Of a DNA stretch of 64,000 nucleotides, positions 10,642 through 60,415 are shown piece by piece. Both the position numbers and the translations under genes were made by a program. Every line of letters begins with the position of its first letter. Position 1 is the stretch's first letter. The stretch comes from a virus (lineage: Duplodnaviria; Heunggongvirae; Uroviricota; Caudoviricetes): IMG/VR virus record IMGVR_UViG_2645727901_000008. One strand, written 5' to 3'. The notes under the pieces were generated by a model that made no database searches, was not told the DNA's origin, and saw only the letters and a program-made list of their open reading frames with translations.

Positions 10642-10736
10642 AGGATTTCCCCCTCTAAACCGTAAAAAATTCCGCTATGCGGTACGGTTGAGAGGGTATG
10701 GAGAATGTTATTTTCAGGGGGACGATACTACCGTCA

Positions 10737-10751
10737 AAATCACATACTCCC
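10737..10751 (+). promoter_or_regulatory. late-promoter-like motif (aaaatcacatactcc)
   Basis: Copy of the conserved motif (sense AAATCACAnACTG), 42-56 bp upstream of the CHAP gene ATG. Confidence 0.4.
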
Positions 10752-10792
10752 CATAGTTTGCCTACTTATTAACCCATGACCGGGAGAAAAAT

Positions 10793-16711: not shown

Positions 16712-16751
16712 GAATCACCGCGAATTGTTTCCAGTTTCGCGGCAGCATAAT

Positions 16752-16765
16752 CAGTATGTGATTTG
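16752..16765 (-). promoter_or_regulatory. late-promoter-like motif (cagtatgtgatttg)
   Basis: Motif 41-55 bp upstream of the portal-like gene start. Confidence 0.4.
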
Positions 16766-19232: not shown

Positions 19233-19260
19233 CTATAGAGAAAGCTGTGAGTGTAAAAAG

Positions 19261-19271
19261 AGTGTGATTTA
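19261..19271 (-). promoter_or_regulatory. late-promoter-like motif (agtgtgattta)
   Basis: Core GTGATTT 29-39 bp upstream of the 458-aa gene start. Confidence 0.35.
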
Positions 19272-22983: not shown

Positions 22984-23023
22984 ACCCCTCCAGAAATAAC
23001 ATCTAATGCGCCACTAACTTAGT

Positions 23024-23038
23024 CAGTTTGTTATTTCC
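23024..23038 (-). promoter_or_regulatory. late-promoter-like motif (cagtttgttatttcc)
   Basis: 14 of 15 identical to the copies at 28729 and 60401; 41-55 bp upstream of the holin-like gene. Confidence 0.45.
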
Positions 23039-28682: not shown

Positions 28683-28728
28683 ACGAACATAGCCCCTTCA
28701 TAAGCAATGAACCAAAGGAGAGTATGCT

Positions 28729-28743
28729 CAGTTTGTGATTTCC
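28729..28743 (-). promoter_or_regulatory. late-promoter-like motif (cagtttgtgatttcc)
   Basis: 15-mer identical to 60401..60415; 47 bp upstream of the R-like gene start, with a -10-like CATACT 2 bp downstream in sense orientation. Confidence 0.5.
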
Positions 28744-35236: not shown

Positions 35237-36058
35237 TTAATAATGGTTAGCCATCCATTCAGATCTAATTGATGGGATAAACTCTCTATTGAGAAAGGGG
35301 ACGTACAGTGTGGTTGTCACATCTGCACCCTCCTTAGCGTTTTTGCAATGTTGCGGAGGCAGGATCAGTCGGCTTGTGCCTCTCTCAATAGACATTTTCA
35401 GGCCGTGGCGTAGGTCTTTTTGCATAAGCTGTATGCGAGCCACAAGCGGTGTAAACTCGGTTTCAAGCGCCATGCTTTCAATGATGTCGAAGCGTCGGTT
35501 AGCTGCTTGAGTGAAGTCTTCCGGATCGTCGTCCAGTGCTGTGCATAAAGCGAGTTCTGCAATGCGCATACGGGCCACGCCTGCACTGTATTCAGGGCTT
35601 TTCATATCAGGAAGTGACGCACGCATACGTTCAAGGAGTTCCGCGCCTTTCCCGGTTAATGGTTTAAGTATCCAGTCAGTTGGTACGCCGTTTACCGGTA
35701 CGTTGGTTTTTACGTAAGGCGGTACAGTGAGTATCTCTACTGTTTGAGCCAGATCGCTCAGGTTTATATCGGCGTGATGCGTATTACCGCAGTGACTGCA
35801 CTCATAGGAGTAGGTCATTACTGCATCGGGGCGCGAATTAACAAATATCCACCAAAGAGCAGTTCTGCGATCCTGAACTGTCCAGTTAGCACTGTCGTTA
35901 ATTTCACCATCCTGCATAGAGTTAAGGTACTCTGTAGTAGTTGCCTCATCTTCTGCCGGGTTCAGGTCAGAATATTTCAGCGCATCCTTCACGGTAGGGG
36001 CGTGGAACTGAATTTCTGTCTCAGGACGGGAAGGCAATGGGAATTTTGGAATGTTCAA
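35237..36058 (-). CDS. tail morphogenesis protein (hypothetical)
   Basis: 273-aa ORF leading the operon that includes the tape-measure gene; late-type motif upstream. Confidence 0.5.
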   Translation of the reverse strand: MNIPKFPLPSRPETEIQFHAPTVKDALKYSDLNPAEDEATTTEYLNSMQDGEINDSANWTVQDRRTALWWIFVNSRPDAVMTYSYECSHCGNTHHADINLSDLAQTVEILTVPPYVKTNVPVNGVPTDWILKPLTGKGAELLERMRASLPDMKSPEYSAGVARMRIAELALCTALDDDPEDFTQAANRRFDIIESMALETEFTPLVARIQLMQKDLRHGLKMSIERGTSRLILPPQHCKNAKEGADVTTTLYVPFLNREFIPSIRSEWMANHY

Positions 36059-36105
36059 TTATTCCTCCGAAAAGCAGGTATCTGTTCATTTTCCAGAGGA
36101 TAGGG

Positions 36106-36119
36106 AGTGTGTGATTTGC
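36106..36119 (-). promoter_or_regulatory. late-promoter-like motif (agtgtgtgatttgc)
   Basis: Core TGTGATTT 48-61 bp upstream of the 273-aa gene. Confidence 0.4.
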
Positions 36120-36163
36120 GATGGGGATTGAATGAAGATCTTTGCTAGTCGAGAAGCGATTAT

Positions 36164-36422
36164 TGAGGGTGATTTTTACACCTTAAGTGACGCTACTCAC
36201 ATATCCACAGAGTATTTTTATAAACCTTTTTCCATTTTTAATCCTTTTTAGATCCTTTTTAGGCGTCGCTGGAGCCAGTAGTGGCGCGGGCTGTAGAGGA
36301 GGCTGGTGTAAGATTTGCCCTCAATTAAATACGATCGGTGTAAGATTCGCCCTCAAAAGGTGTAAGATTTGCCCTCAAAAGGTGTAGTAATTGCCCTCAA
36401 AGTGATGTAAAAATTGCCCTCA
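36164..36422 (+). other. plasmid origin region (oriV): inverted iteron, DnaA box, AT-rich tract, five direct iterons
   Basis: Inverted iteron 36164..36182; DnaA-box-like aTATCCACA at 36201..36209; AT-rich 36211..36262 with repeated cctttttag; five iterons on a 21-22 bp period. Confidence 0.7.
36305..36422 (+). repeat. five direct iterons (GGTGTAAGATTTGCCCTCAA)
   Basis: Copies start at 36305, 36337, 36359, 36381 and 36402. Confidence 0.85.
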
Positions 36423-36446
36423 CCATTCGAAGGAACACACAGGGTT

Positions 36447-37202
36447 ATGAACAGAGCGGAATTAACAGCAAAAGCCGTCAGCCTGATTGAGTCAGCGACA
36501 CCTATTAGTCGTAGTTTGGCACAAGCCAATGAGATCACGGAGGCTGCTTATCACCTGACTCGCGACCAAAAGCGACTGTTGTTTATTGTGGTGGGAAGAC
36601 TTCGCTATGCTTCTAAGGATGGCGTTCTTGGTTCAGGTGCCTGTGAGTTGACGGTCAACGAATATGCAGAGATGTATAATTTGCCCTCTGCTGAAGCCAG
36701 CAAGGATATTCGTAAGGCCATTTCAGGGCTTAGCGAGAAGAAAGTTACGATATATAACCCTGATGAATCGACCGAATCAGAAGACAGTTATGAGTCTTAT
36801 CCTTGGATGATTAAGGATGCCTATTCACCACGGCGCGGGACTTACATTATTCATCTTAATCCATATCTCATGCCGTTTTTTACTCTGCTTGATAAGAGAT
36901 TCACGAGGCTGAATTTTACCGAAGTATCTCGCCTTACAAATCCTTATTCTATGCGGCTTTATGAGTCCTTATGCCAGTACAGGAAGGATGATGGAAGCGG
37001 CTTTGCCATACTTGGCGTCGAATGGATGCGGGAGCGTTATGGGTTACCAAAAAGCTATCAGCGGTATGCCGAATTTAAGAGAAGTTTTTTAACGAAGGCT
37101 GTAGCAGAGATTGAAAAAAATACAAAAATGAAAATAGTCTTCTCAGAGGTGACGGAAGGCGGAAAAGTTACCAGGATAAAATTTACCTATCAGCAGTCTT
37201 AA
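36447..37202 (+). CDS. repA: iteron-binding replication initiator RepA (Rep_3 / RepE-like)
   Basis: Starts MNRAELTAKAV...; the pattern EVSRLTNPYSMRLYESLCQYR...ERYGLPKSYQRYAEFKRSFLTKAVAEIEKNT is typical of Rep_3 initiators; flanked by iteron arrays. Confidence 0.85.
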   Translation: MNRAELTAKAVSLIESATPISRSLAQANEITEAAYHLTRDQKRLLFIVVGRLRYASKDGVLGSGACELTVNEYAEMYNLPSAEASKDIRKAISGLSEKKVTIYNPDESTESEDSYESYPWMIKDAYSPRRGTYIIHLNPYLMPFFTLLDKRFTRLNFTEVSRLTNPYSMRLYESLCQYRKDDGSGFAILGVEWMRERYGLPKSYQRYAEFKRSFLTKAVAEIEKNTKMKIVFSEVTEGGKVTRIKFTYQQS

Positions 37203-37531
37203 GGGCAATTTTTACACCCTTCTCAAGGTGTAGAATTTGCCCTTAACGATCGGCAATTGAGGGCAATTTTTACATCTTAATTGCATGTATCTTGTTATTA
37301 GCAAGTTGTGTTTTTATATAACGTATTGATATGTAAGGATTATGTAAAAATCACCCTCAACCAATATCGTGCGTATCGTGCATTCTTATTGCGCTTTTTT
37401 ATTATCATTCACTGTGTTAACTGATTGATATTATTGAAATGTGTAAAGAATGCCTTCATTACAGATGAATTGATGATGTAAAAAATGCCCTCAAAATTGC
37501 GCTACCTTCCCTACCCGCTATCGTTGAGGGC
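37201..37531. repeat. downstream iteron cluster in mixed orientation (copy-control-like)
   Basis: Iteron-like copies at 37201 (rc), 37228, 37257 (rc), 37339, 37471 and 37524 (rc, partial), with an AT-rich tract between. Confidence 0.7.
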
Positions 37532-37583
37532 GTGGGTGCTGACGGGAAATGAGCAACCCTCCAGCACACATAATTAAAGCGCT

Positions 37584-38291
37584 TCAGAATTTAATCACTC
37601 CACTCACAGCTCCCTTTAACGCACTTGTAGCCATGCCTGCGGCACCGTTGACCAAAGCAGAAACACCTGAGCCTGCGGATGTGTATTTCTGGAAAGTGAT
37701 TGGGTATGACAAGAACTCTGACACCTGATCACGTGAGCGAGTGATTTCCCCAAGTTGTGTAGGAAATACGCGCATTTCTTCTTCCAGTTCTTTTCCGCCG
37801 TCCTGAGTCACCCGGTAGACACGGATTTTCATCAGATATTCAGGAGGAAGGTTTATTGTTCCATCAGGGTTTGTTACACGAGAACGACGCTCTTTGAACC
37901 AGTCCATGATCTTGCCATCTTCGGTATCCCTCACGGTCATAGTGACCGGTCCGGCGCTAACATAGGTTGGCTTGCTGAATTCTACGCTGCCGATCACCTT
38001 GCTTTCTGTCTCAATGTTTCCACTGCTGTAGGTGATATCCTTCACGAACATATCGAAGCCGTTCAGGCCATCCACTTCAACGGTCCACTGCCACCCCTGG
38101 GCGTAACGGATACGCATAGCGGCAGCAACAATATTTTTCCCGTAGGCAATATCGCTACTGTAATTCCCGCTTACCCCGCCGCCTGATATGGCTTTATCAA
38201 GAATGTCGCTAATGAGGTTGCTGGTGAATGATTTCGTGTTAAATGACAATGCGGTGGTCAACGTTCTACCAACGCTGCTGAAAATACTCAC
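37584..38291 (-). CDS. tail/baseplate structural protein (hypothetical)
   Basis: 235-aa ORF in the contiguous late operon running from the capsid gene. Confidence 0.45.
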   Translation of the reverse strand: MSIFSSVGRTLTTALSFNTKSFTSNLISDILDKAISGGGVSGNYSSDIAYGKNIVAAAMRIRYAQGWQWTVEVDGLNGFDMFVKDITYSSGNIETESKVIGSVEFSKPTYVSAGPVTMTVRDTEDGKIMDWFKERRSRVTNPDGTINLPPEYLMKIRVYRVTQDGGKELEEEMRVFPTQLGEITRSRDQVSEFLSYPITFQKYTSAGSGVSALVNGAAGMATSALKGAVSGVIKF

Positions 38292-38306: not shown

Positions 38307-38897
38307 TTAAAAAATGGTAGCCCCCGGAATAATGGCCCGGTTTGAGGACATTTTTTCCTCTATCTCCTGCACTCGGGCATATAGCGTGGCTTCATCGGGC
38401 AGATCGGAGTAGTCAAATTTCCCGTCGATGGACGCTCTACGCTGCCGGGCGACATTTCTGACATTGATAAGCGCCTCCAGATATTCCTCCAGCATTCCAA
38501 TGATTGCAGGAGGCACTTGCCATTCATCCAGCTTTCTGTCGCGTAGATTAACCAGATAGAGCATCCGAAAAGGCCAGCGTTCTGAACCTGTTAGCTCTAA
38601 TTCAATAAAGCCGGATAATTCATCCGAATAGACCAACAGGCCATTGTTGTCGGTAACATGAACCAGAGAGAGATAATCTTCTGGCAATGGAATTGCAGTA
38701 CCACCAGCTTTTTCAAGTTTTAACGTTTTCACTACCCCTGCCCTGTCCTGATACGTGGTCAGAGCTTTGATCAGGAAGGCTTTCAGCGTTTCTTCTTCAC
38801 GCACAAGCAGTGGATTAAATCGTGCTTTAACGCTTTCTAATAATTCGGTTGGTGTCATCGTGCCTACAACTCCAAAACAAAGATGTTCCCGCCACAA
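38307..38897 (-). CDS. tail structural protein (hypothetical)
   Basis: 196-aa ORF, tightly packed in the late operon. Confidence 0.45.
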   Translation of the reverse strand: MWREHLCFGVVGTMTPTELLESVKARFNPLLVREEETLKAFLIKALTTYQDRAGVVKTLKLEKAGGTAIPLPEDYLSLVHVTDNNGLLVYSDELSGFIELELTGSERWPFRMLYLVNLRDRKLDEWQVPPAIIGMLEEYLEALINVRNVARQRRASIDGKFDYSDLPDEATLYARVQEIEEKMSSNRAIIPGATIF

Positions 38898-38912
38898 GGG
38901 CGGGAGCGGGGA

Positions 38913-44681: not shown

Positions 44682-44739
44682 GGTTAAGCCCTAAATTCGG
44701 GCGCGGCGTGAAGGTTCTTTTGACGGGCTAACAATACCT

Positions 44740-44753
44740 ACTTTGTGATTTAG
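44740..44753 (-). promoter_or_regulatory. late-promoter-like motif (actttgtgatttag)
   Basis: Core TTTGTGATTT 59-72 bp upstream of the capsid gene start. Confidence 0.4.
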
Positions 44754-47559: not shown

Positions 47560-47735
47560 TTTTGTATTCTCAATTCGTTCTCAAATAAATCTCACTGTCA
47601 GACCATCATTCGGTGGGTGATTAAGATATTCTCAAAATAAACTCAACAATCGCTCTTTTTATCTCGTTTGGTGTGGATTTTTGGGTGCTTCTCTTTTAAA
47701 ATTACATTTTGGTTCTCAAATGTGTCTCAGAAGTG
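47560..47735 (+). repeat. parC-like centromere repeats upstream of parM
   Basis: Repeated TTCTCAA(A/T) elements at about 47567, 47578, 47629 and 47714. Confidence 0.5.
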
Positions 47736-47745
47736 GAGCAAGAAG

Positions 47746-48702
47746 ATGCGCATTTTTATCGATGATGGTTCAACCAATATCAAAATGCTGTGGGAGCACG
47801 ACGGGGAAACTCGCACTCACATCAGCCCTAACAGCTTTAAGCGCGGATGGTCAGCAACATTTGGTGCTGGCAAGCCATTTAACTATGTCATTGACGACGA
47901 AAAGTATTCGTATGATTTGATCTCGCCAGATGTTCTGCCGACGAATAACGTGGAATGGCAATACAGCCCGCTTAACGTCCTGGCTGTTCACCATGCCCTG
48001 CTGACAAGTGGCATTGAGCCGCAGGAAGTAGAAATTGTGGTTACGCTGCCACTGGCGGAGTTTTACGACGACGACGCGCAATACAATCTCGATAACATCG
48101 AGCGCAAGAAAGCCAGCCTTATGCGCCCCGTCACGCTGAATAAAGGCAATGTATTCACGATTAAGAAAGTTACGGTACGCCCGGAGTCTATTCCGGCAGG
48201 AATTGGTCTGTGCGACAATCTGAACCCTGCCCACTCTGTTCTTATCGTCGATTTGGGTGGAACTACCCTTGATGTTTCAATGGTCGCCGGGCAAATGACG
48301 GCAGTTTCCCGTGTTTTTGGCGATTCGAATCTTGGTGTATCACTGGTCACCAGGGAAGTAAGGCAAGCACTTGCCAGAGCCAATACCGAAACGTCAAATT
48401 ACAATGTCGATCAGCTCATTATTAACCGCCACGATGAAGATTATCTGAACGACAATATCAATGACCCATCAGCGGTTGGTGATGTGAAAAAGGCCATTGC
48501 CGCAAGCATTGACCGTCTGCGTACCCGCGTTCTTGATGTGATTGGCGACTTTAAAGGATATACGCATGTCATGGTGATCGGTGGTGGCGCACCGCTGGTG
48601 GCAGATGCAATTCGCGAGCAAGTTAATATTCGTGATGACCGTTTCTTCGTGGCGGATGACCCGCAACTTGCTCTTGTTCATGGCCTGAAAGCAATCGGTT
48701 AA
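47746..48702 (+). CDS. parM: plasmid segregation actin-like ATPase ParM
   Basis: MRIFIDDGSTNIK…ISPNSFKR…DLGGTTLD…GYTHVMVIGGGA is highly similar to R1 ParM as recalled. Confidence 0.9.
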   Translation: MRIFIDDGSTNIKMLWEHDGETRTHISPNSFKRGWSATFGAGKPFNYVIDDEKYSYDLISPDVLPTNNVEWQYSPLNVLAVHHALLTSGIEPQEVEIVVTLPLAEFYDDDAQYNLDNIERKKASLMRPVTLNKGNVFTIKKVTVRPESIPAGIGLCDNLNPAHSVLIVDLGGTTLDVSMVAGQMTAVSRVFGDSNLGVSLVTREVRQALARANTETSNYNVDQLIINRHDEDYLNDNINDPSAVGDVKKAIAASIDRLRTRVLDVIGDFKGYTHVMVIGGGAPLVADAIREQVNIRDDRFFVADDPQLALVHGLKAIG

Positions 48703-48709
48703 CGAGGTA

Positions 48710-49054
48710 ATGTCCATGTCTCAGGAACGTAAGAAAGTGATGATTTATCTTCGCCCAGAGGCTTATGCCAATGAAAAGGCGGCGAGCGAGAAGATAAAAA
48801 AACATAGCGATATGGCAAGAACCGCATTGTTGGCAGGGCTTGCGCTGGGAGAAGTCGATAGCAGGCTTCCAGGATTACTGGCTTCCCTGCTGACCGAAGA
48901 CAATAACCCGGAGCTGATCCGAAAAATGCTGGCATCCTTCCTGGAACTACCAGCTGCGGTTGAGGAGCGCCCTGCCTCCATTGAGCCAGTGAAGGAGCAA
49001 GTTGTTGCCAAAAGCGCGTCGGCGCGTAATCTTGCTGATTCTCTACCTGATTGA
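48710..49054 (+). CDS. parR: ParR-like centromere-binding adaptor
   Basis: 114-aa ORF 7 bp after parM, matching the R1 parMR order; followed by a terminator. Confidence 0.55.
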   Translation: MSMSQERKKVMIYLRPEAYANEKAASEKIKKHSDMARTALLAGLALGEVDSRLPGLLASLLTEDNNPELIRKMLASFLELPAAVEERPASIEPVKEQVVAKSASARNLADSLPD

Positions 49055-49073
49055 TGGTCAAAACTCTATTTTA

Positions 49074-49097
49074 AGGCTGCAAATTGCAGCCTTTTTT
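49074..49097 (+). terminator. intrinsic terminator after parR
   Basis: Hairpin ggctgc-aaatt-gcagcc followed by ttttttg. Confidence 0.6.
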
Positions 49098-49098
49098 G

Positions 49099-49320
49099 TT
49101 CCTTTTTGGTGTTAAAATGGCATCAAAGCGACACCAAATGGGAGTCGTTAATGTACTGGTGCATACTTGGTGCTAATTTAGTGCTATTCAGGCGCAAAAC
49201 GTGTACCAGTATCCATCGGATTTGATGTTATACTTCCGGCATTAAGAATGGTGCTATTGCTGTACCGTTGATGTGTAAATGTGGTGCTGTTTTAGTGTAA
49301 AAATAGAGCCAAAATAAAGC
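49099..49320 (+). repeat. centromere-like repeat region upstream of parA
   Basis: Dense (T)GGTGC(T) and GTACCAG-type repeats, including acttggtgctaatttagtgctatt, aatggtgctattgctgtacc and tgtggtgctgttttagtg. Confidence 0.5.
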
Positions 49321-49326
49321 CGAGGT

Positions 49327-49974
49327 ATGGACATGATTATCCTGGTAGCAAGTCAAAAGGGAGGCTGTGGCAAGTCAACCACCAGCGTCAATATTTGTGC
49401 CGAGCTGGCCCGAAAAAACAAAGATGTCGTCTTGATTGATGCTGATAAGCAGGGAACGGCAGCTCGATGGGCGTCAGACCGTAATTCGTCCGAAGTGACA
49501 CCAGTTATTCATTGCGTCCAGAAGTTTGGAAATATTCGAGAAACTCTGCTCGATCTTAACAATCGATATGAATACGTGGTTGTTGATACCGCAGGTCGTG
49601 ATAGTAAAGAGATGCGCACAGGTATAACGGCGGCGGATATTCTATTGGTTCCATTCAGGCCGTCTCAGCCAGATTTGGACACGCTGGCACACTTTGTTGA
49701 GGTGTTTGAAGAGGCTTTGGATCTGATGCCTAATCCCAATATTAAGGCGTGCGCAGTCTTAACTATGGCCCCGTCAAATCCGGTTGTGAATGAAGCAAAT
49801 GAGGCCAAAGAGTATCTGGCAGAATATCCGCAACTGAAATTGCTGAAAACCATTATTCGCGATCGCAAGGTTTACCGCGACTGCATGGCTGAAGGAAAGG
49901 GTGTTGTTGAGATGGATAACGGTAAGGCGAAAGGTGAAATTCAGATGTTAGTTAAGGAGTTGCTAAGTGATTAA
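49327..49974 (+). CDS. parA: small ParA/ParF-type partition ATPase
   Basis: Deviant Walker A (KGGCGKST) in VASQKGGCGKSTTSVN and a VVDTAGRD segment; 215 aa. Confidence 0.8.
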   Translation: MDMIILVASQKGGCGKSTTSVNICAELARKNKDVVLIDADKQGTAARWASDRNSSEVTPVIHCVQKFGNIRETLLDLNNRYEYVVVDTAGRDSKEMRTGITAADILLVPFRPSQPDLDTLAHFVEVFEEALDLMPNPNIKACAVLTMAPSNPVVNEANEAKEYLAEYPQLKLLKTIIRDRKVYRDCMAEGKGVVEMDNGKAKGEIQMLVKELLSD

Positions 49975-56111: not shown

Positions 56112-56162
56112 AAGCATCCTCAAAGGTCGATTTATCAGGTATCGAGGGTGCATTGTCTGGAG

Positions 56163-56173
56163 ATTGTGATTTC
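56163..56173 (-). promoter_or_regulatory. late-promoter-like motif (attgtgatttc)
   Basis: Core TTGTGATTTC upstream of the 55320..56111 operon. Confidence 0.35.
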
Positions 56174-60256: not shown

Positions 60257-60400
60257 TGTCCTTCCTCCACGGATGACGGATACAAAAAAAGGCCGCACAT
60301 GGCGGCCTGCTTTGGCGTTATGACTCCCTACCGCGCTTCGGCTGAAAGTTAATCGTCAAAAGAACCTTCAACGGGAGCCGTTAGCGCGATGGATTATGTG

Positions 60401-60415
60401 CAGTTTGTGATTTCC
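60401..60415 (-). promoter_or_regulatory. late-promoter-like motif (cagtttgtgatttcc)
   Basis: Identical 15-mer to 28729..28743; CATAAT follows 4 bp downstream in sense orientation. Confidence 0.45.

Follow-up and report, generated by a model that had tools for sequence, protein, structure and literature searches.

The 64,000-nucleotide (nt) stretch of viral DNA analysed here (IMG/VR record IMGVR_UViG_2645727901_000008; hereafter the window, on which all coordinates are given) carries an intact iteron replicon at 36163-37494, in which the initiator gene repA and its iterons lie between homologues of pmgB and of the tail-tube gene tub. The region 36100-37600 is 99.3% identical over 1501 bp to Escherichia phage D6 (NC_050154, 45494-46994), whose orf42 (YP_009914719) has the same two neighbours and is annotated as ‘replication initiation protein ... 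pfam01051; putative plasmid replication initiation’. It also matches non-mobilizable plasmids of ~90 kb from E. coli, Salmonella and Shigella at up to 99.7% identity, the best plasmid match being Salmonella pGMI14-002_2 (99.7%). Near-identity to D6 together with these matches indicates that the window is part of a D6-type phage-plasmid, and by nucleotide identity it is a member of the D6-type lineage within the P1 family.

The replicon is already known. Besides its annotation in D6, the module of the D6-like plasmid pYU39_89 has been described as ‘repB associated with iteron sequences’ (PMC6799933); the D6 repB serves as a screening and surveillance marker, and the D6 rep is missing from typing databases (both bioRxiv 10.1101/2025.09.12.675607). 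The window has the same locus as D6 orf42 and pYU39_89 repB, with no material difference. What we add is incremental, namely the kinship with F ori2/RepE/incC, the distinction from p0111, a conservation footprint covering 12-13 predicted RepA sites, and a reusable replicon slot followed by a late-promoter-like motif.

Parts of the replicon and their conservation

The 19-mer GRTGTAARATTTGCCCTCA, searched against the whole window with up to 3 mismatches, gave 11 matches, all of them inside 36164-37493, where 0.09 would be expected by chance, and none of 100 shuffles reached that count. The five direct iterons upstream of repA (Table 1) are 19-20 bp long, with start-to-start spacings of 32, 22, 22 and 23 bp, and form an array of the kind that marks Rep_3 origins, where three or more direct repeats of ~17-22 bp lie beside rep, spaced by the helical repeat. 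With just 23 nt between the last of them and the repA ATG, the promoter of this gene must share sequence with the array. DnaA-box-like sites and an A+T-rich tract suited to unwinding lie beside the iterons, again as in Rep_3 origins. The initiator passes the cut-offs of the Pfam models Rep3_N (PF01051, 2.9e-29) and Rep3_C (PF21205, 9e-16) and thus has the two winged helices of the Rep_3 family; among proteins of known structure it finds F-plasmid RepE (1rep and 2z9o, among others) with E ~1e-73, and over 228 residues it is 50% identical to F-type RepE.

Downstream of repA lie six further iterons, two inverted and four direct, the first of which overlaps the repA TAA stop and forms with the second a 20-nt inverted repeat whose arms are 8 nt apart. 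Two sites matching the IHF consensus WATCAANNNNTTR are interspersed with them; since this consensus is not enriched across the window (5 matches against 3.9 expected), the IHF sites are only a lead. Within 37203-37583 we found no conserved small open reading frame (ORF), and an Rfam scan of 35900-37800 returned no match at E up to 1. An iteron-like site also occurs inside repA, at 36671; 19 of its 20 columns are invariant, but it is coding sequence, and the invariance of its third codon positions (6/7, against 149/251 or 59% across repA) is not significant.

Conservation was measured on an alignment of the pmgB-tub interval of the window with its counterparts in two E. fergusonii plasmids and in E. 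coli MINF_7C together with E. marmotae; these make up three diverged lineages, 83.8-85.5% identical to the window at the nucleotide level. Plasmid pSa1423-90k (NZ_MK356557.1, 1449-2939) was excluded from the counts because of homopolymer and frameshift errors: many single-base homopolymer indels break repA and its neighbours, and few coding sequences are annotated in the record, a pattern that looks like uncorrected long-read error, not biology. In the alignment, 210 of 236 iteron columns (89%) are invariant, compared with 209 of 474 other non-coding columns (44%; Fisher p 3e-33). The spacer at 36325-36336 between direct iterons is only 17% invariant, and the downstream spacers merely 13-24%. 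For repA, dS (synonymous divergence) is 0.47-0.67 and dN (nonsynonymous divergence) 0.002-0.009, and by the resulting dN/dS of 0.003-0.018 the gene is under very strong purifying selection; it is intact and shows no sign of being a pseudogene.

The first-pass annotation, made from the sequence alone, had described a complete theta-type replicon at 36164-37531, composed of an inverted iteron, a DnaA-box-like site, an AT-rich tract, five direct iterons, a Rep_3-type repA and downstream iterons of mixed orientation. All of these parts are present at or near the positions it gave, and its description of a complete iteron replicon with a Rep_3 initiator agrees with the WH1 and WH2 domains, the match to RepE structures, the mini-F layout described below, the conserved iterons and the purifying selection. 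Its left end holds as well, whereas its right end has to be moved: the half-site TTGAGGGC at ~37517 is not conserved in the related lineages, where the tail 37495-37583 has 13% invariant columns, and the replicon therefore ends at 37494, not at 37531.

Table 1. Features of the replicon and its surroundings; invariance refers to columns of the alignment with the three diverged lineages
Feature	Position	Strand	Basis	Invariance
Single inverted iteron (TTGAGGGTGATTTTTACACC), left of DnaA boxes	36163..36182 (19-mer 36164-36182)	-	Repeat match	20/20
Tandem DnaA-box-like sites, CTACTCACA (7/9) abutting ATATCCACA (8/9, 36201-36209)	36193..36209	+	Sequence; alignment with two F-type ori2 DnaA boxes	15/17
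A+T-rich tract with CCTTTTT-type repeats and one GATC; presumed DNA-unwinding element	36210..36258	.	49 bp, 78% A+T (window mean 54%); aligns with F ori2 A+T block	46/49
G+C-rich spacer (65% G+C) ending in GTAGAGGAGG (F: CTAGAGAAGG)	36259..36304	.	Composition; F alignment	
Five direct iterons	36305-36324, 36337-36356, 36359-36378, 36381-36400, 36404-36423	+	Repeat match	90-100%
repA, 251-aa Rep_3 initiator (WH1+WH2), RepE-like	36447..37202	+	Pfam, NCBIfam and PDB matches	
Iteron-like site within repA (GATGTATAATTTGCCCTCT, 2 mismatches; codons EMYNLPS)	36671..36689	+	19-mer match	
Three tightly clustered downstream iterons	37199-37218(-), 37227-37246(+), 37257-37276(-)	mixed	Repeat match	75-90%
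IHF-consensus site (TATCAATACGTTA), 9 bp 5′ of iteron 37341	37319..37331	-	Perfect match	Conserved or one mismatch in three lineages
Downstream iteron (TATGTAAAAATCACCCTCAA), weaker copy	37341..37360	+		17/20; spacers around it 16-24%
IHF-consensus site (TATCAATCAGTTA), 9 bp 5′ of iteron 37440	37418..37430	-	Perfect match	Consensus kept in all lineages; N4 positions vary
Degenerate downstream iteron (TGTGTAAAGAATGCCTTCAT)	37440..37459	+	Sequence	17/20
Last downstream iteron (GATGTAAAAAATGCCCTCAA), right end of replicon	37475..37494	+	19-mer match	15/20
pmgB homologue, left flank, late gene	35237..36058	-	ORF list; TTG start after GGAGG; D6 annotation ‘similar to P1 gene pmgB’	
tub (tail tube) homologue, right flank	37584..38291	-	ORF list; D6 annotation	
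Late-promoter-like motif AAATCACA-N7-TATCCT, 39 bp upstream of pmgB; left boundary, outside replicon	36097..36117	-	Motif match	21/21
AAATCACA-N7-TANNNT sites	10693-10713(-), 10737-10757(+), 16744-16764(-), 19250-19270(-), 23016-23036(-), 28721-28741(-), 36097-36117(-), 44731-44751(-), 56152-56172(-), 60393-60413(-)	mixed	Motif match	

Kinship with known replicons and distribution

The mini-F replicon (RepFIA) has an initiator of the same length (RepE, 251 aa) and the same order of parts, with DnaA boxes, an A+T-rich block, a G+C spacer, direct 19-bp iterons, rep and a second iteron cluster. Parts of the F-type ori2 DNA can be aligned with the window, namely TATCCAC, the A+T block TATTTTTATAA...TTTTTAGATC and the spacer end TAGAG(G/A)AGG, and the iterons have a common 3′ core, ATTGCCCTCA (F iteron: TGTGACAAATTGCCCTCAG), whereas their 5′ halves are unlike (GGTGTAAG here, TGTGACAA in F). 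F incC starts 2 nt past the repE stop in inverted orientation, and the window's downstream cluster also begins inverted at the stop, but the orientation of its iterons is mixed where those of the F-type copy are all inverted, and the two IHF-consensus sites in the array are a further difference from F. The origin has five iterons here as against two in the F-type copy that we inspected, that of pSFO157; F ori2 has four. The window has an additional inverted iteron left of the DnaA boxes, unlike F, and F repE has no iteron at the position matching the intragenic repA site. Between iterons and repE, the F-type copy has the operator TGTGACAAT-N7-ATTGTCACA, while the window has just the 23-nt gap, devoid of an inverted repeat. 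Finally, sopABC does not follow the window replicon as it does in F, the partition genes (ParM/StbA-like and ParA-like) being ~10 kb off. Judged by initiator, layout and alignable origin DNA, the D6 replicon is a relative, or sister, of F RepE/ori2-incC, and with half of the iteron sequence shared between D6 and F, cross-talk or incompatibility with IncFIA plasmids is possible.

The P1 replicon (oriR/repA/incC/incA, IncY), for which we relied on the P1 GenBank annotation, serves the same role in a related phage-plasmid. Its rep promoter is embedded in the five iterons of the origin, an arrangement that is likely in the window too, and its downstream iteron array, which controls copy number, lies at the rep stop, where the window's array likewise starts. 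The sequences of the iterons differ, and so does the location: the P1 replicon adjoins parAB/parS beyond gene 23, whereas that of the window lies between tub and pmgB. P1 RepA and the window RepA are not significantly similar (BLASTP E 0.057), consistent with the earlier view that this is not a replicon of the P1 RepA type.

As P1-like elements are called IncY or p0111 in the literature, a p0111 type was expected, but this candidate was rejected, the Rep of pO111_2 (AP010962/NC_013370) being unrelated (BLASTP E 0.027). The p0111 replicon is also of the iteron type and also found in P1-family phage-plasmids, but has a 294-aa initiator and iterons of the form ATGTTGACTATACACGAT. MOB-suite separates the two as rep_cluster_2164 (p0111) and rep_cluster_1704 (D6), and types the plasmid matches of the window as rep_cluster_1704. 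By these comparisons, the D6 replicon is neither IncY nor p0111, and common typing databases miss it.

In PLSDB, RepA falls into a tight cluster of 108 records at ≥95% identity, followed by a gap down to the crowd of RepE proteins at ~50%. Query coverage reached at least 80% in 103 of the 129 PLSDB records found by a distant search, and among 5426 complete E. coli genomes the replicon occurs in 88, always on a plasmid and never on the chromosome. A 36.5-kb record with an identical RepA was considered as a natural mini-replicon and ruled out, the contig being linear and incomplete and belonging to a D6-like element. In three plasmids (NZ_CP095127.1, NZ_CP061103.1 and NZ_LT906557.1) the match breaks at window ~37468-37477, just before the last downstream iteron, and resumes elsewhere in the record, a pattern suggestive of inserted or rearranged sequence among the downstream iterons.

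More distant relatives from a large protein collection have the same architecture with iteron variants of their own. A 78% identical RepA (L016, 5001-5756) on an 87-kb P1-like metagenomic contig is accompanied by two DnaA boxes, an A+T tract and five direct iterons and, downstream, by seven iterons that alternate in orientation. A 71% identical one (L018, 5001-5759) on a 104-kb contig comes with three inverted iterons upstream, at the relative position of the window's single inverted iteron, the ATATCCACA box found in the window and five direct iterons, and its stop codon is overlapped by an inverted iteron. A 57% identical relative is found on an ordinary Nissabacter plasmid. On their P1-like contigs, the first two loci lie elsewhere than in D6, one beside a HigB/HTH pair near a darB-like gene and the other upstream of capsid-like and sheath-like genes, so that P1-family elements carry this replicon family at three or more different loci.

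The slot between pmgB and tub may also be filled differently. CP042620.1 (2520-4010, corresponding to window 36116-37254) has there, in the same orientation, a complete p0111-like replicon with a DnaA box, a tract rich in GATC, iterons of the ATGTTGACT type and a Rep of 294 aa that is 85% identical to the Rep of pO111_2. Homology to the window ends at ~36115, at the late-promoter-like motif, and restarts at ~37255, so that four D6-type iterons are left in CP042620.1 without a D6 RepA. This variant is rare: its pmgB-tub interval reaches ≥80% coverage in just two PLSDB records, CP042620.1 being one of them. Taken together, this swap and the relatives at other loci show, at the level of sequence comparison, that replicon cassettes change places and are traded among members of the P1 family, in agreement with the published view of plasmid functions as the variable part of phage-plasmids (PMC7969092, PMC10879196).

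Probable role in plasmid maintenance and copy control

We consider it very probable, by analogy with these systems, that the module is the maintenance replicon of the prophage-plasmid, an iteron-controlled theta-type replicon homologous to mini-F ori2/repE/incC that provides low-copy plasmid persistence under F/P1-style control. As for F RepE, P1 RepA and other Rep_3 initiators, RepA monomers would bind the five direct iterons at 36305-36423 and, together with host DnaA at the adjacent boxes, open the A+T tract at 36210-36258 and recruit the host replisome. RepA bound to the promoter-overlapping iterons would autorepress repA, as in P1, and the six downstream iterons (37199-37494), probably along with the upstream inverted one, would titrate RepA and handcuff the origin iterons, thereby keeping copy number low, while the two IHF-consensus sites may bend the DNA and aid looping. 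From these parallels we infer that the module replicates autonomously, that RepA represses its own gene, that handcuffing occurs and that DnaA and IHF take part; for the downstream iterons, a handcuffing role would be a reasonable expectation given F incC and P1 incA.

Several observations weigh against this assignment. Against the NCBIfam equivalog model of RepE (NF010305), RepA scores 280.6 bits, under the cut-off of 342 bits, which makes it a member of a sister lineage of RepE, not RepE proper. DnaA boxes by themselves are not above chance in the window (58 against 61 expected), so the weight of the pair rests on its position and conservation. A sigma-70 scan of 35900-37750 yielded no convincing repA promoter, and an F-type operator of inverted half-iterons was not found between the iterons and repA, which affects the mechanism of autoregulation. 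In addition, our literature search, which did not extend to the original D6 genome description, found no published demonstration that this fragment replicates autonomously.

A first alternative concerns the downstream array (37199-37494), which might serve mainly as a roadblock or insulator against the tub late transcript, as a second origin, or as an operator for RepA dimers at the head-to-head pair 37199-37246, and not for copy control. The array sits where late transcription leaving tub would enter, antisense to repA, and there is no conserved intrinsic terminator after tub, a scan of 35900-37750 having returned just weak, non-conserved hairpins. Moreover, a 20-nt inverted repeat with an 8-nt gap is the kind of site bound by Rep_3 dimers elsewhere, and the mixed orientation departs from the one-way F incC. 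On the other hand, the position 3′ of rep and the number of copies parallel F incC and P1 incA, both established copy-control and incompatibility loci, and the relative with seven alternating downstream iterons is not next to tub, which indicates that the array travels with the replicon and not with the late-operon context. We therefore regard these other functions as improbable main roles and copy control as the better reading of the array.

It is also conceivable, though very improbable, that the module is the relic of a former replicon and that the prophage is maintained by something else, such as repL or an unrecognised origin. A repL homologue is indeed present on D6-like elements too, and the four orphan D6-type iterons of CP042620.1 illustrate that leftover iterons can persist. 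However, repA is intact in more than 100 plasmids and has kept the dN/dS given above at a dS of ~0.5-0.7, and the iterons, DnaA boxes and A+T tract have remained near-invariant while the spacers diverged. The D6 annotation, which covers the question of another replicon elsewhere in the element, contains no other Rep-family gene and has the lytic repL homologue as its sole other replication gene, and P1 repL is repressed by C1 in lysogens (the operator is in the P1 annotation). CP042620.1, for its part, lost repA yet gained a complete replicon in the same slot, which argues that a replicon in the slot is needed. Given the selection, the conservation, the architecture shared by the relatives and repL as the only other annotated replication gene, the comparative evidence is that this is a live maintenance replicon, and we infer that it replicates autonomously. 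That the repeats are chance or low-complexity sequence and the ORF spurious can be dismissed: nothing speaks for it beyond single DnaA and IHF consensus matches being common, and it is refuted by the shuffles, the Rep_3 and RepE homology, the conservation and the selection.

The module is thus real and well conserved, but ordinary. The clarifications given here are useful for typing phage-plasmids and for building D6-based vectors, and carry little weight as discovery.

The pmgB-tub slot and late transcription

In P1, the promoter LPsit drives pmgC-tub-pmgB-sit-pmgA-bplA-16 as one operon, with a tub-pmgB gap of 14 bp according to the P1 annotation, and the two genes are likewise 14 bp apart in pO111_2. 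In D6-type elements, the 1.5-kb replicon occupies exactly this junction, with repA opposed to the late genes. A consensus of the P1 late promoters (LPdar, LPs, LPsit and LP23) was tried as the late promoter of the window and rejected, having 1 match against 0.6 expected and none near the replicon; with this failure, D6-type elements evidently use a different motif. From the window's own regions upstream of late operons we derived AAATCACA-N7-TANNNT, which has 11 matches against 1.8 expected, a number reached by 0 of 100 shuffles. Ten of the 11 precede a same-strand ORF by 18-95 bp, and the operons behind the motif include those of darB, portal, lydA, R, pmgB, gene 23, gene 7 and mat, among others. 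The motif differs from the -22 box of P1 late promoters (AAGTKACTT), which does not occur in the window, and is probably the putative Lpa-dependent late promoter of D6-type elements.

The copy of the motif next to pmgB bears on the statement of the first-pass annotation that the replicon sits between two minus-strand late operons, which stands for this lineage, unlike P1 with its single LPsit operon. The motif that precedes gene 23 (44731-44751) is the probable start of the upstream late unit, which ends at tub, and a new unit seems to start from pmgB. P1 offers a parallel, where the sim/immI/repL block lies between bplB and pmgC with LPsit directly after it. Across the P1 family, replicon cassettes move and are swapped between three or more positions in the genome, and wherever the run of tail genes is broken a late promoter or late-promoter-like motif follows.

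It is tempting to go further and to see in the pmgB-tub gap a dedicated, exchangeable replicon slot whose position is functional, forming a built-in transcription-replication switch between plasmid and phage mode and not simply a place of insertion. The basis for this reading is that the occupant, RepE-like or p0111-like, points against late transcription and that the late-promoter-like motif follows directly. During the lytic cycle, read-through from tub, antisense through repA and the RepA-bound iterons, would shut off plasmid-mode replication, and during lysogeny the iteron arrays would insulate the origin. We hold such a switch to be unlikely.

Two minor observations concern the neighbourhood. 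Between bplB and pmgC, within what is expected to be a single long late unit, a hairpin rich in G+C (CCCGCC...GGCGGG) with a T-rich run after it is present at 38859-38912(-), which is where P1 has the immI/repL insertion and LPsit. The genes for ParM/StbA, StbB-like and ParA-like proteins at 47668-49974(+), whose distance of ~10 kb accords with the earlier statement that the replicon is placed outside a dedicated plasmid-maintenance block, form two unlike partition-type modules side by side, ParM/StbA with a StbB-like protein and then a short ParA-like ATPase with a small ORF.

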